Part shown: positions 4,331-15,507 of the stretch, piece after piece | Layout of the letters: every line of letters starts with the position of its first letter | Numbering within the stretch: position 1 is the first letter of the stretch | Virus record (IMG/VR): IMGVR_UViG_2877953467_000002 | Strand: one strand, 5' to 3' | From: a virus | Taxonomy: Duplodnaviria; Heunggongvirae; Uroviricota; Caudoviricetes | Length of the DNA stretch: 40,890 bases | Position numbers and translations under genes: made by a program | The notes under the pieces: model-generated | Told to the model about the DNA's origin: nothing | The model's database searches: none | What the model saw: the letters and a program-made list of their open reading frames with translations, nothing else

Positions 4331-4499
4331 TATCGCGCCCTCAACAATGAGTTTTGTGATGCGGTGCCTGGTGCCTCCAGGTGACGTTAACCAGTTAACA
4401 ATTAACGCCGGATACAGAGAATCCACCCATAACACTGTTTTTGGTTTTAACTGTTCCGCGTGCGCTTAGCCGCATTCACCGCATCACAAAATTCACTTT

Positions 4500-4557
4500 A
4501 AAAAGGGCGGCAGAGCAGTCACGGAGTAAAACTGATACCGCCAAACGTCACCAGAAA
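4500..4557 (-). ncRNA. dicF: DicF small RNA (Hfq-dependent, ftsZ-targeting) with intrinsic terminator
   Basis: Reverse complement reads TTTCTGGTGACGTTTGGCGGTATCAGTTTTACTCCGTGACTGCTCTGCCGCCCTTTTT, which matches DicF as I recall it; GC-rich hairpin plus U-tract at the 3' end; immediately upstream of dicB. Confidence 0.7.
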
Positions 4558-10433: not shown

Positions 10434-10552
10434 GACTGCGGGTGCTTGAGGCTATCTGTCTCAGGCATGAACACCAAAAGGCAGATAGAGAAAAGCCCCA
10501 GTTAACATTACGCGTCCTGCAAGACGCTTAACATTAATCTGAGGCTCAATCT

Positions 10553-10765
10553 ATGAACGGCAAATCTAGGTTAGCCTCTTACGTGCCGAAAGGCAAGGAG
10601 AAGCAGGCTATGAAGCAGCAAAAGGCGATGTTAATCGCCCTGATCGTCATCTGTTTAACCGTCATTGTGACGGCACTGGTAACGAGGAAAGACCTCTGCG
10701 AGGTACGAATCCGAACCGGCCAGACGGAGGTCGCTGTCTTCACAGCTTACGAACCTGAGGAGTAA
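10553..10765 (+). CDS. mok: Mok-like overlapping reading frame (modulator of killing)
   Basis: 70-aa ORF that begins upstream of and runs through the hok frame, as in hok/sok loci. Confidence 0.5.
   Translation: MNGKSRLASYVPKGKEKQAMKQQKAMLIALIVICLTVIVTALVTRKDLCEVRIRTGQTEVAVFTAYEPEE
10610..10765 (+). CDS. hok: Hok/Gef-family type I toxin
   Basis: 51 aa MKQQKAMLIALIVICLTVIVTALVTRKDLCEVRIRTGQTEVAVFTAYEPEE: single TM helix followed by the conserved RK(D/S)LCE(V/I)R...EVAAF-like core of Hok proteins. Confidence 0.8.
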   Translation: MKQQKAMLIALIVICLTVIVTALVTRKDLCEVRIRTGQTEVAVFTAYEPEE

Positions 10766-12271: not shown

Positions 12272-12652
12272 ATGACTGAACGCATAGAATTTGTTTTGCC
12301 TTACCCGCCGACGGTGAATACCTACTGGCGACGTCATGGCAATACGTATTTCATCTCGGAGGCCGGAAAGCGTTATCGCCGTGATGTGGCGCTAATTGTT
12401 CGCCAGCAGCGGCTGAAATTAAACCTGTCCGGAAGGCTGGCGATAAAGGTGATTGCAGAGCCACCGGATAAGCGTCGTCGCGACCTGGACAATATCCTGA
12501 AAGCACCGCTGGATGCGCTGACGCATGCGGGAGTGTTAATGGACGATGAGCAGTTTGATGAAATCAATATCGTTCGTGGTCAGCCAGTATCTGGTGGACG
12601 TCTGGGGGTGAAGATTTACCCCATAATGCATGAAGAGCAGGTCAAAAAATGA
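12272..12652 (+). CDS. rusA: Holliday-junction resolvase RusA
   Basis: 126 aa with RusA signature (LPYPPTVNTYWRR..., DKRRRDLDNILKAPLDAL, catalytic Asp residues). Confidence 0.9.
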   Translation: MTERIEFVLPYPPTVNTYWRRHGNTYFISEAGKRYRRDVALIVRQQRLKLNLSGRLAIKVIAEPPDKRRRDLDNILKAPLDALTHAGVLMDDEQFDEINIVRGQPVSGGRLGVKIYPIMHEEQVKK

Positions 12653-13470
12653 AACTGGAAGATTTACCGAAATACTACTCCCCAAAATCCCCTGGCCTGA
12701 CCGATGCATCGGCCTCAACGTCAAAAGATGCGCTGAGTATCACTGATGTGATGGCCGCGCAGGGCATGACACAGAATCGGGCTGAGATGGGGTTTTCTGC
12801 GTTCCTGGGGAAAATGGGCATCAGTATGAATGACAGGGCGCGGGCAACAGAATTACTGGCAGATTATGCACTCAGTCGGTGCGATCGTGTTGCGGCGTTG
12901 AGAAAACTTCCGGCAGAAATAAAACCGTTAGTGATGCGCATTATGGCTTCGTACGCTTTTGAGGATTATGCCCGCAGCGCAGCGAGTAAAAAGCAGTGCC
13001 CTTGTTGCTATGGGGAAAAATTTATTGAAAGCGTAGTTTTTACAAACAAGGTCCAGTATCCGGATGGTAAGCCGCCGGTATGGGCAAAGTGTACGAAAGG
13101 TGTGTATTCGTCTTACTGGGAAGAATGGAAAAAAGTCAGGGAGGTGGTAAAAGTTGCCTGTCCGGAGTGTGGCGGAAAGGGTGAGGTTTCCACCGCCTGT
13201 AAGGATTGCCGTGGGCGTGGTGTCGCCATTCATCGTGAAGAGTCGGTAAAACGTGGTATGCCTGTTATCAGAGACTGCCAGCGTTGTGGTGGTCGTGGCT
13301 ATGAAAGACTACCATCAACGGAGACATTTAATGCTATATGCGAGGTGACAAACCAGATAACACGCGCGTCATGGGAAAAAACAGTTAAGAAATTCTATGA
13401 TGCGCTGGTGACCCGGTTTGATATTGAAGAAGCATGGGCTGAGCGGCAGTTAAAAAAGGTAACTAGGTAA
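12649..13470 (+). CDS. quuQ: Late-gene antiterminator Q (QuuQ-like family)
   Basis: 273 aa with several CxxC motifs; directly upstream of a promoter/terminator pair, tRNA and the lysis genes, the canonical Q position; family assignment from memory. Confidence 0.6.
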   Translation: MKLEDLPKYYSPKSPGLTDASASTSKDALSITDVMAAQGMTQNRAEMGFSAFLGKMGISMNDRARATELLADYALSRCDRVAALRKLPAEIKPLVMRIMASYAFEDYARSAASKKQCPCCYGEKFIESVVFTNKVQYPDGKPPVWAKCTKGVYSSYWEEWKKVREVVKVACPECGGKGEVSTACKDCRGRGVAIHREESVKRGMPVIRDCQRCGGRGYERLPSTETFNAICEVTNQITRASWEKTVKKFYDALVTRFDIEEAWAERQLKKVTR

Positions 13471-13475
13471 CAAGG

Positions 13476-13503
13476 TTGATTTTTCCGGAATCTGTGGTAA
13501 ATT
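13476..13503 (+). promoter_or_regulatory. Candidate late promoter PR' (TTGATT -35, TAAATT -10)
   Basis: Lies 6 bp after the Q stop and about 50 bp before a strong intrinsic terminator, matching lambda PR'/qut/tR' geometry. Confidence 0.4.
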
Positions 13504-13552
13504 CGTCATAATAATGGGCTTTTTATGCCTGACGTTAGAAGAGTTTCTACAA

Positions 13553-13575
13553 CCCGCCGCCGAGCGGGTTTTTTA
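13553..13575 (+). terminator. tR'-like intrinsic terminator; would end a short (about 65-nt) PR' transcript
   Basis: CCCGC-CGCCGA-GCGGG hairpin followed by TTTTTT. Confidence 0.65.
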
Positions 13576-13613
13576 TTGCGGAATTAATTACGGACCGTTA
13601 TTATTCTACTCCC

Positions 13614-13689
13614 GGCCCTTTAGCTCAGTGGTGAGAGCGAGCGACTCATAATCGCCAGGTCGCTGGTTCAAATCCAGCAAGGGCCACCA
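13614..13689 (+). tRNA. ileZ: tRNA with CAU anticodon, closest to tRNA-Ile2 (ileX/ileZ-like)
   Basis: 76-nt cloverleaf folded by hand: acceptor GGCCCTT/AAGGGCC, D-arm GCTC...GAGC, anticodon loop CTCATAA, T-arm GCTGG TTCAAAT CCAGC, encoded CCA; near-identical to E. coli ileX as recalled. Confidence 0.8.
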
Positions 13690-13789
13690 TCACAAACCGC
13701 CATTAGCTTATCAGGAAGAGCAGACGACACGATAACAGGGTTGTTGGTGCGGGGGCGGGTCCCCGATGGCGGTCCATTATCGGTATTCA

Positions 13790-13866
13790 GCGTTGTTAGC
13801 TCAGCCGGGCAGAGCAATTGCCTTCTAAGCAGCTGTGGTTGCACTCCTGTTGTTTCTGGTGGTGAT
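13790..13866 (+). tRNA. tRNA-Arg(UCU)-like sequence, probably degenerate
   Basis: 5' half resembles argU-type tRNA (GCGTTGTTAGCTCAGCCGGGCAGAGCAATTGCCTTCTAAGC) but no canonical T-arm or acceptor 3' strand could be folded. Confidence 0.3.
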
Positions 13867-14031
13867 GGTGGACTTCAGCAGCCGGATAATGTCGGTGCTG
13901 TCTGATGGTGTTTTGGTGGCGGGTGTGTGGTTGTTGCTTTCCCGTTGCTGAAAAAGAAAGCATCAGGCGATTAGCAGGGTATCAGTTACCCGTTGAAATT
14001 TTTAAATACCTCACAATTCCACAGCTTGATG

Positions 14032-14228
14032 ATTGTCTGGCTGCCGGAGAATTTGTTAAAAATTACATCGCATGGTGAATCCCCCTCAGCGGCGGGGCAT
14101 CTGGCAAAGTGTATGATCCAGAGAACATGCAAATTCAGTAGACAGGCTGAATTTACCGGGAGGCCCCTGGCACCATGCGACAGACAGAAATTAGGCTATA
14201 CTTCAGCCCCTCTCCGGAGGGGCTTTTC
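14032..14228 (+). repeat. Noncoding repeat unit, copy 1, ending in an intrinsic terminator (14205-14228)
   Basis: About 200 bp; shares ATTGTCTGGC, GTTTGTTAAAAA, GCATGGTGAATCCCCCT, an ACCGGGAGGC-CC-GGCACCATGC hairpin motif and the terminator AGCCCCTC-TCCG-GAGGGGCT with copy 2. Confidence 0.5.
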
Positions 14229-14418
14229 TGTGCAGGATGTGTCACAGTTTCCTGAATTCTGAGTACTGTCCTGTTACTCAGGGTGCTATATTTTCTGACG
14301 TGATGAAAGTCTGCCGGAAGGCGGAACGTATCGGAAATGACCCAGTAGAGAAAACGTTGACTCAGATACCGATGCTGAGTTACCGGGAAACCGGCATCAC
14401 ATGACCGCTATCCTTCCA

Positions 14419-14441
14419 GGCTCGCTCCGGCGGGCCTTTTT
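14419..14441 (+). terminator. Intrinsic terminator ending a short unit between the two repeat copies
   Basis: GGCTCGC-TCCG-GCGGGCC hairpin plus TTTTT; the upstream segment begins TTTCTGACGTGATG, loosely like the DicF 5' end. Confidence 0.5.
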
Positions 14442-14500
14442 ACTGCAGAAAACAGTTTTCCCGTAAAATGCCACGTTGCTCATAATTCAGGCTGGCGATT

Positions 14501-14693
14501 ATTGTCTGGCCGGCGGGAAGTTTGTTAAAAAATTTCGCATGGTGAATCCCCCTGTGCGGAGGGGTAATCAGCGAGTAGGTATATGGGATAATCGCGGATT
14601 CAGGTGCTGGTACTGAATTCACCGGGAGGCACCCGGCACCATGCAATGGCACATAGCGCCACTCTCCAGCCCCTCTCCGGAGGGGCTGTTTAT
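14501..14693 (+). repeat. Noncoding repeat unit, copy 2, ending in an intrinsic terminator (14668-14693)
   Basis: See copy 1; conserved blocks flank a divergent central segment. Confidence 0.5.
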
Positions 14694-14722
14694 ATTGATT
14701 TTGTCAGATGTGAGTAAACTCC

Positions 14723-15058
14723 TTATGGACTTTGTTGTTTTAGTCCATAAGGACATATTTGCAGAATGCAACGGTTATTAAAGCATTCATTCAATACGTT
14801 ATCTGTATTTGTAGGGCATTCCTGGCTGTTTTTGATTAAATTCCAGAATGTTTTATTGAATGGTACTACGTTGTAAATGGTTACAGGTAGCACTTTGTTA
14901 TTGAGCATGATACCTGTGTGAGTCAGTGTAAATATACTTTCAGGAGGTAAGAAAGCATCCGATTGATACCAGATTATTAATTTTACTTTACTCCATATGA
15001 CTGAAAAAGATATTCCGCATGATGGCTGGATAACTGTATCAATTACAATCCACTTCAT
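14723..15058 (-). CDS. Hypothetical protein in an AT-rich segment (moron candidate)
   Basis: 111-aa ORF with AAGGAAG RBS 6 nt upstream; AT-rich flanks; perfect 12-bp-stem hairpin (14720-14753) at its 3' end; no recognisable domain. Confidence 0.45.
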
Positions 15059-15318
15059 TTAGCTTCCTTGTTTATGCCTTGCTGGTGATGTTCTGAAAAG
15101 TATAAATGATATTTTTGAATATAAACCATAGAGCAGAATTATTTTTCTGATGTTGTTTATTGTTTATTTAAATGCAGGGTGGTTTATATCTCGTCTTGTA
15201 GTTTATCCATGCATATCTGCTTGATGATCAGGTTTCTATTTAAGGTATGGTTTTGTGTTTTTTCTGTGTTACATGTCTGGTATTTTAAAGAATTATTTTT
15301 CAGATGGTGGAAAGAACC

Positions 15319-15507
15319 ATGGCATTTAAACACTATGATGTTGTCAGGGCGGCGCCGCCGTCAGATCTTGCGGAAAAGCTGACACATAAACTGAAAGAGG
15401 GCTGGCAGCCGTTTGGTAGTCCGGTGGCCATAACCCCTTATACCCTGATGCAGGCGATTGCAGCAGAAGGTGATGTGGTGGTCAGTGGTGCAACTGAGCC
15501 GGAGTGA
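15319..15507 (+). CDS. Small conserved phage protein upstream of the holin (possibly DUF1737-like)
   Basis: 62 aa from ATG 15319; position typical of a small conserved gene preceding S in lambdoid phages; family label from memory. Confidence 0.4.
   Translation: MAFKHYDVVRAAPPSDLAEKLTHKLKEGWQPFGSPVAITPYTLMQAIAAEGDVVVSGATEPE

Follow-up and report, generated by a model that had tools for sequence, protein, structure and literature searches.

The region downstream of PR' has been described as a moron site with small RNA (sRNA) genes (Tree et al., PMC4104026). In Shiga toxin 2 (Stx2) phages, STnc100 (Rfam RF02076) lies 75 nucleotides (nt) downstream of stx2B (PMC12370729), and the Hfq-bound sRNA EcOnc27/sRNA103 overlaps the STnc100 copy at this place (PMC12711010, PMC4104026). 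Eleven STnc100 copies are transcribed in EDL933, one of them confirmed by Northern blot (PMC5331693), and RpoD-bound promoter regions were found at STnc100 copies of Salmonella LT2 (PMC10794520). A second described group is PasD, an abundant RNA that joins Hfq chimeras in RIL-seq (sequencing of interacting RNAs after their ligation) by means of its linker (PMC8550237); Zhu, Shabalina and Storz placed STnc100 next to the Pas sRNAs and proposed a common ancestry with PasD (bioRxiv 10.64898/2026.05.13.724894). For the dicBF transcript, recent work on processing has dealt only with sites upstream of DicF. Here we analyzed a 40,890-nt stretch of DNA (IMG/VR record IMGVR_UViG_2877953467_000002), called the window below, which is a lambdoid prophage of Escherichia coli and harbors a cluster of three terminator-ended units. 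These are probably three paralogous sRNA genes of the STnc100/PasD family located in the moron site, two of them canonical and one divergent.

The three units and their relation to STnc100 and PasD

The whole window was scanned against Rfam 15, which yielded two STnc100 matches, DicF, sok and one tRNA. Both STnc100 matches extend over the full model with scores above the Rfam gathering score of 47 bits, so that the first and the third unit belong to this family by score. The features of these two units are given below, where P1, P2, P4 and P5 denote the helices of the folded domain.

14040-14233, plus strand: unit 1, full-length STnc100 (RF02076; 138 bits, E = 1.7e-30, model positions 1-206)
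14033-14062, plus strand: predicted sigma-70 promoter of unit 1 (-35 element TTGTCT at 14033-14038, extended -10 element TGtTAAAAA at 14054-14062)
about 14070-14228, plus strand: predicted RNA of unit 1, with putative ends
14070-14077/14171-14178, plus strand: helix P1 of unit 1
14081-14096, plus strand: helix P2 of unit 1
14131-14139/14146-14154, plus strand: helix P4 of unit 1
14156-14160/14166-14170, plus strand: helix P5 of unit 1
about 14179-14204, plus strand: variable linker of unit 1
14205-14224, plus strand: terminator of unit 1, followed by TTT
14509-14697, plus strand: unit 3, full-length STnc100 (RF02076; 132.5 bits, E = 4.4e-29, model positions 1-206)
14502-14531, plus strand: predicted promoter of unit 3 (-35 element TTGTCT at 14502-14507, extended -10 element TGtTAAAAA at 14523-14531)
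about 14537-14692, plus strand: predicted RNA of unit 3, with putative ends
14567-14573 with 14605-14611, plus strand: predicted pseudoknot of unit 3 (AUCAGCG with UGCUGGU)
14621-14640, plus strand: P5 motif of unit 3
about 14645-14666, plus strand: linker of unit 3
14667-14688, plus strand: terminator of unit 3, followed by TTTATATT

The initial annotation had taken the cluster for a family of prophage sRNAs or regulatory leaders and had suggested a covariance-model search against Rfam. The search, with its STnc100 matches at units 1 and 3, bears out this main interpretation, the middle unit and the leader of dicB being significant relatives below the threshold; what had been missed is that this family had already been named and described in publications. 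The terminator-ended units are copies of an already catalogued prophage sRNA family, and annotation with Rfam would name two of them. The imperfect direct repeats of about 200 bp noticed earlier were recovered as an alignment of 14032-14227 with 14501-14690 (73% identity, 201 columns, E = 1e-22), and all three strong intrinsic terminators claimed for the cluster are present, that of the middle unit at 14418-14437. In both canonical units TTGTCT stands 18 nt upstream of TGtTAAAAA, and the two promoters, which are predictions read from the sequence, are paralogous. The minimum-energy folds of both units yield P1, P2, P4 and P5 (z = -2.4 for unit 1 and -2.8 for unit 3), and the family model R1 scores 93 bits on unit 3. 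Units 1 and 3 have in common with described STnc100 copies, including EcOnc27/sRNA103, the helices, the 3' terminator, the site between the Q and tRNA genes and the lysis genes, and the multicopy habit. In contrast to the STnc100 copies of Stx phages, no stx gene is present here, the units directly follow the tRNA region, and they form a cassette of three whose 3' linkers are unlike each other.

The middle unit (unit 2) is a significant but divergent relative of STnc100, as judged from model scores and the predicted fold. Its features are as follows.

14290-14442, plus strand: unit 2, divergent STnc100-like (predicted RNA about 14298-14442; Rfam STnc100 30 bits, E = 2.9e-4)
14284-14292, plus strand: predicted extended -10 element TGcTATATT, with a putative start at about 14298-14300
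P1 of unit 2: GUGAUG/CAUCAC
P2 of unit 2: UCUGCC-GGAA-GGCGGA
14329-14334 with 14369-14374, plus strand: predicted pseudoknot of unit 2 (UAUCGG with CCGAUG)
P4 of unit 2: ACUCAG/CUGAGU
P5 of unit 2, shortened: CCGG-GAAA-CCGG
14418-14437, plus strand: terminator of unit 2, followed by TTTTT (U5)

The Rfam match of unit 2 covers 14269-14444 and stays below the 47-bit gathering score, so that unit 2 is not a member by score; with model R1 its score is 22.4 bits (E = 7e-5 over 66 kb). All helices of the family are present (fold z = -3.1). The departures from the family are GAUGAAA in place of GGUGAAU and a P5 loop that has become GAAA. Unit 2 occurs in 673 of the 5426 complete E. coli genomes, in 341 at 99% identity or more and in 333 at about 86%. 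The 86%-identity variant of strain AR_0013 keeps TCAGGGTGCTATATTTTC, and the sequence further upstream diverges. The P2 helices of the two variants differ by compensatory changes (UCUGCC/GGCGGA versus CCUGUC/GGCAGG), and we therefore argue that selection acts on the RNA fold. AR_0013 has the same cassette of three units, which lies behind three tRNA genes, all intact, and ahead of a gene for a nanS-p esterase; its units score 136 bits (STnc100), 30 bits (unit-2-like) and 165 bits (second STnc100). The first STnc100 unit of this cassette (locus L127, 704-894) is 92% identical to unit 3 (window 14479-14690) and not to unit 1, which holds the corresponding cassette position. This likeness points to recombinational shuffling of units between prophages.

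An earlier suggestion that the middle unit has a DicF-like 5' end did not survive. The DicF model (RF00039) has no match in 13690-15300 at E <= 10, there is no homology of DicF to any of the three units, and the TTTCTG...ACGT likeness is at the level of chance: TTTCTGACGTG has 24 near-matches in the window at two mismatches or fewer, and DicF is not among them. TTTCTGACGTG covers the spacer after the predicted -10 element, the putative start site and the first P1 bases of unit 2.

PasD1 and PasD2 of enteropathogenic E. coli strain E2348/69 have in common with the units the 5' start GCAUGGUGAAUCC, helices P1, P2 and P4, and the pseudoknot (AAUGAUC/GAUCAUU). Their position is also alike, an open reading frame (ORF) with a DUF3927 domain preceding them and a gene for an esterase or a holin following. 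As with unit 2 and the dicB leader, their scores with the Rfam STnc100 model stay below threshold (37.7 and 41.4 bits), and model R1, which was not trained on PasD, gives 36.5 bits. Ahead of PasD2 stands TTGACT-N17/18-TAAAAA, and the RIL-seq reads start at the G of GCAUGGUG. However, P5 is largely gone from PasD, and its linker, which contains the seed UGUGAG, is longer, whereas units 1-3 keep P5 and are without the seed. The alignment of PasD with the units covers only the 5' 45 nt and a GGGAGGC block; units 1-3 are not PasD alleles.

A shared fold and its copy in the dicB leader

To define the core of the family, 48 cores were collected: one genome per species was scanned for the P5 pattern, GGTGAA was required 70-140 nt upstream, and unit 1, unit 3 and the dicB leader were added. 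In this alignment (A2) the P5 block and GGUGAA are invariant by construction, and only the positions left free, the remaining helices and the pseudoknot provide independent evidence. The genera represented are Escherichia, Shigella, Salmonella, Enterobacter, Klebsiella, Raoultella, Kosakonia, Trabulsiella, Superficieibacter, Pantoea, Erwinia and others. Some cores adjoin Q antiterminator and lysozyme genes; others are chromosomal, for example beside folD or a chemoreceptor gene. On the 48 cores, 88.6% of the cells of P1, P2, P4 and P5 are paired, compared to 40-46% with slid partners, and double-change cells number 197, compared to 52-75 in the slid controls; none of 500 shuffles attained the observed pairing or double-change values. 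The letter pairs of P1 across the family include GU/AC, GC/GC, AU/AU and AC/GU. P2 occurs in two types, the common CCC-CC/GG-x-GGG and the dicB type GCG-GC/GC-A-CGC, and a single register (21-37, 22-36, 23-35, 25-33, 26-32) suits both.

In nearly every sequence, the P4 loop is the complement of the bases just 3' of P2, and the pairs differ from lineage to lineage: CAGUUAA/UUAACUG, ACUGGAUA/UAUCCAGU, AGGCUAC/GUAGCCU, UUUGAUC/GAUCAAA, CUGGUGAU/GUCACCAG and others. Complementarity within sequences was 15.0, compared to 10.5 ± 0.35 when the partners were permuted between sequences, and none of 5000 permutations attained the observed value. This pairing of the P2 flank with the P4 loop amounts to an H-type pseudoknot, strong in unit 3, unit 2, the dicB leader and PasD. 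It is absent from the structure line of the Rfam STnc100 model as printed by cmscan, and we did not find it described in the searchable literature.

Tandem arrays of two to three units were also seen outside Escherichia, in Superficieibacter electus (L114), at locus L106 and in Pantoea sp. App145 (L116/L086), the last on plasmid pAPP145_2; each unit of L114 and the second unit of L106 have their own terminator. In Kosakonia spp. and Enterobacter sp. BIGb0383 a gene for a KdgM-family porin (Pfam, 7e-71) lies 200-260 nt downstream of a family member (loci L033, L085, L090, L093, L117 and L065). This context is conserved and does not look like prophage, and the family member could be a long 5' leader or a neighboring sRNA.

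The domain is also found in the leader of dicB, with the following features.

4351-4493, minus strand: core domain of STnc100 type in the dicB 5' leader, lying after the DicF terminator and before the AUG of dicB (about 4329)
P1 of the dicB leader, minus strand: GAUGCGGUG/CACCGCAUC
P2 of the dicB leader, minus strand: GCG-GC/GC-A-CGC
predicted pseudoknot of the dicB leader, minus strand: CAGUUAA with UUAACUG
P5 of the dicB leader, minus strand: CCUGG-AGGCA-CCAGG
4505-4556, minus strand: DicF sRNA gene (Rfam RF00039, 76.7 bits), given as context and not homologous to the units

On the minus strand, 4353-4493 scores 38.8 bits with the STnc100 model of Rfam (E = 6e-7), over model positions 21-154 only. 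The claim that the units are homologous to the spacer between dicF and dicB therefore holds, the same core domain and model match being found there. The domain spans from just past the DicF terminator, which directly precedes it, to about 25 nt before the dicB AUG (fold z = -3.5), and shares with the units P1, P4, the P5 motif and the pseudoknot as well as P2, which is maintained by compensatory changes. It differs from them in lying directly upstream of a Shine-Dalgarno (SD) sequence and ATG, those of dicB in Qin-type prophages and those of unrelated small ORFs in other genera. It has neither a promoter nor a terminator of its own and is part of the polycistronic dicBF transcript. With a score below the gathering threshold and an SD sequence and ATG instead of a 3' terminator, the dicB leader has the common domain without being one of the sRNA genes of the STnc100 family. 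The dicF-dicB spacer of E. coli K-12 scores 34.4 bits with the STnc100 model. The order of DicF terminator, domain, and SD and ATG of unrelated ORFs was also found in Lelliottia, Pseudescherichia, Scandinavium, Shigella and Escherichia ruysiae, and P1 and P5 show compensatory changes across these dicB-type loci of other genera. We found no paper linking STnc100 to dicB in the searchable literature.

Two shorter resemblances between the units and the spacer had been proposed, each of which held in part. The hairpin motif is shared, its form being corrected to A-CCNGG-AGGCN-CCNGG-CACC; the window contains ACCNGGAGGCNCCNGGCACC at exactly three sites, 14155-14174 (plus strand), 14621-14640 (plus strand) and 4363-4382 (minus strand), with none expected from 100 shuffles. 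Of the two sequence blocks, GGTGAAT is common to unit 1, unit 3 and the spacer, whereas GGATTC is not homologous, because it lies in helix P4 of unit 3 but in a variable insert of the dicB leader.

Genomic setting of the cluster

The cluster has the sense of the late operon and is located between Q, PR', tR' and the tRNA genes on one side and the lysis cassette on the other. Its surroundings contain the following features.

12649-13470, plus strand: Q antiterminator gene (Pfam Antiterm, 1e-54)
within 13476-13578, plus strand: PR'-like promoter TTGATT-N16-TAAATT, directly after the Q gene
13551-13570, plus strand: strong terminator with T6, 3' of the PR'-like promoter
13614-13689, plus strand: tRNA with anticodon CAT
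13835-13951, plus strand: DUF3927 ORF of 38 amino acids, preceding the cluster
14723-15058, minus strand: ORF of 111 amino acids convergent to unit 3 (called an anti-adapter protein IraM(-like) by the annotation pipeline PGAP; no Pfam match)
10440-10615, plus strand: sok antitoxin RNA (Rfam, 112 bits), adjoining a hokD-type toxin gene

Further along, 3' of the convergent ORF, follow a DUF1737 ORF and then the holin, YdfR and lysozyme genes. The cluster had been assigned to the position at which Stx phages carry their cargo, and this placement agrees with both the locus and the literature: it is the moron site between Q and the tRNA genes and the lysis genes, and STnc100 is documented downstream of stx2. 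Positions 13480-14760 are 100% identical in many complete genomes, and the cluster was matched in 354 phage records, mostly of Stx-converting phages, and in 3341 of 5426 E. coli genomes. Terminator-like sites are enriched in 13300-15400 (n = 11, compared to 2.0 ± 1.6 in shuffles).

Several neighboring elements were observed in addition. The PR'-like promoter and the terminator behind it (13476-13578, plus strand) would yield a short leader RNA at about 13510-13578, made constitutively, some 65-70 nt long and of a kind with lambda 6S RNA or StxS; this candidate has no Rfam match. Two tRNA-Arg genes (argN/argO-like), which follow tRNA-Ile in related prophages, are decayed in the window (13690-13951, plus strand): the segment is 89% identical to the intact tRNA-Arg genes of strain AR_0013, and neither gene is called by ARAGORN or Rfam. 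The DUF3927 ORF family is also found ahead of PasD1 and PasD2 in E2348/69. The ORF at 14723-15058 (minus strand) fills the cargo position, which in Stx phages is taken by stx or nanS-p.

Other RNAs of this neighborhood were considered as relatives of the units and rejected. The anti-sRNAs AsxR and AgvB and the PR' leader RNAs (StxS, lambda 6S) are likewise non-coding RNAs from the moron or late-leader region of lambdoid prophages, but have no relation to the units in either sequence or fold; neither AsxR nor AgvB (RF02703, RF02702) was matched on either strand of 13690-15300 at E <= 10, nor were partners of the AsxR, AgvB or Esr41 kind convergent to the units found in the window. IpeX, at the equivalent position of the K-12 prophage DLP12, is not a member of the family: there was no STnc100 match in K-12 572500-578500 (the nmpC-essD region) at E <= 0.01. 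A tRNA-like origin was suggested by the adjacent tRNA genes and by the 3' strand of P5 running into the 3' strand of P1, but neither ARAGORN nor the Rfam tRNA model calls any of the units.

Alternative readings and significance

As three sRNA genes, the units would be self-contained modules. In each, a weak extended -10 sigma-70 promoter would direct a start at helix P1, in line with the position at which the reads of PasD2 begin. The start would be followed by the conserved folded domain of about 110 nt (P1, P2, pseudoknot, P4, P5), a variable unpaired linker of 20-35 nt and the intrinsic terminator. In a lysogen each unit would yield an sRNA about 150-160 nt long. By analogy to PasD, with its seed UGUGAG in the linker beside the terminator, Hfq would assist the pairing of the linker with target mRNAs, and the folded 5' domain would stabilize the RNA or bind a partner. 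Once the prophage is induced, none of the three terminators would stop the Q-modified polymerase, and the units would become part of the late transcript.

A number of points weigh against this proposal. The support for expression comes from homologues in the literature and not from this prophage, and no canonical STnc100 copy has a validated target. The predicted -10 elements (TAAAAA) are weak and a consensus scan flagged none; that of unit 1 was missed because it lacks the final T. In unit 1 the pseudoknot is weak (UCUG/CAGG). In an excerpt of an RNA-seq table, pasD1 and pasD2 change little (log2 fold change -0.18 and +0.55), unlike pasA, pasB and pasC; this table appears to compare an hfq mutant with the wild type, in which case the Hfq dependence of the PasD branch would be uncertain. 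The model does not explain the pseudoknot or the near-invariant nucleotides of junction and loops, all of which go beyond the needs of an sRNA that acts by base pairing. The same domain is an mRNA leader upstream of dicB, and its function therefore need not be trans-acting. A simple seed-plus-terminator arrangement does not account for the conservation of the domain or for its use in the dicB leader.

An alternative that we regard as unlikely is that the units are cis-acting leaders or attenuators, similar to riboswitches or to attenuators that depend on a protein. The pseudoknotted domain would be the sensor for a ligand or a protein, the terminator or SD sequence would serve as the expression platform, and the transcription or translation of downstream late or cargo genes, for example nanS-p, the lysis genes or dicB, would be gated. 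The strong conservation of the core with its pseudoknot, the presence of a terminator after the domain at some loci and of an SD sequence and ATG at others, the tandem copies in several genomes, and the nanS-p esterase gene that often lies directly downstream of STnc100 or PasD2 would all fit such a role. However, every sRNA-type unit has its own promoter-like element set to start at P1, and the gene next to unit 3 (14723-15058, minus strand) is convergent to it and not one that it could control. The linker between P1 and the terminator varies in length and sequence, with no conserved alternative pairing seen, and PasD engages in trans interactions (PMC8550237). The downstream genes are heterogeneous (Rha/Ash, MarR, KdgM porin, small ORFs of no known kind), which also speaks against a metabolite riboswitch with a coherent regulon.

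That the units encode short peptides, either in the frame MVNPP..., whose AUG lies in the 5' strand of P1, or in a frame starting at the AUG in its 3' strand, is in our view very improbable. The ORFs of the second frame are as follows.

14175-14255 and 14641-14781, plus strand: ORFs from the AUG in the 3' strand of P1, in both of which the terminator hairpin is translated as SPSPEGLF

The AUGs of the first frame (14072 and 14539) are near the predicted 5' ends, and those of the second (14175 and 14641) come after a GGAGG, the AUG in CACCAUGC being 11 nt past the invariant GGAGG of P5. Ribosome-footprint-to-transcript ratios reach 3.2 for some STnc100 copies of EDL933, but are 0.04-0.6 for others (PMC5331693). 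Both AUGs are part of P1, which covaries as RNA (GUG/GCG/ACG on the 5' side, CAC/CGC/CGU on the 3' side), and the peptides, of 14 and 25 amino acids, are alike only over the stretch set by helix P2. The second frame crosses the terminator, and a terminated RNA would be without a stop codon; for this reason, and because its AUG is not conserved in the family, the ORFs listed above were judged non-coding. The initial annotation had seen no convincing ORF in the cluster, and Pfam indeed matches nothing in any of the six ORFs found there on both strands. Together with the position of the candidate AUGs within the covarying P1, this also led us to reject remnants of a protein-coding gene.

Finally, it is extremely unlikely that the units are non-functional debris of tRNA genes, a protein-coding gene or old duplications with incidental terminators, as the visibly decayed argN/argO-like tRNA genes nearby and a PGAP pseudogene fragment under unit 3 (minus strand) might suggest: four helices and the pseudoknot are kept by compensatory changes across genera, the unit 2 variants also differ by such changes, promoter-like and terminator elements are kept in all units, homologues are transcribed (PMC5331693, PMC8550237), and neither strand carries a protein-family signal.

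To the catalogued family of sRNA genes this analysis adds the divergent middle unit, the recurrent three-unit cassette, the support for the dicB leader, the spread across the Enterobacterales and the pseudoknot supported by covariation. STnc100 is among the most abundant sRNA annotations in bacterial genomes, without an established function for the canonical RNAs, and a statistical association has been found between sequence variants of the copy downstream of stx2 and the outcome of hemolytic uremic syndrome (PMC12711010). That one pseudoknotted domain stands at the front of both the sRNAs of the moron site and the leader of dicB, a gene for an inhibitor of cell division, offers a concrete and testable handle on what the conserved part of these RNAs does. 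We put forward, as a tentative idea that is more doubtful than probable, that the core of about 110 nt in STnc100, PasD, unit 2 and the dicB leader is a distinct and widespread RNA domain of the Enterobacterales that binds a specific partner, be it a protein, the ribosome or a small ligand. Such a domain may consist of P1, P2, the H-type pseudoknot, P4, P5 and the near-invariant junction and loop nucleotides. If this were true, prophages would use it both as the 5' end of moron-site sRNAs and as the leader of toxic early genes such as dicB, and it would represent a new class of structured regulatory RNA, beyond a scaffold for a base-pairing seed.

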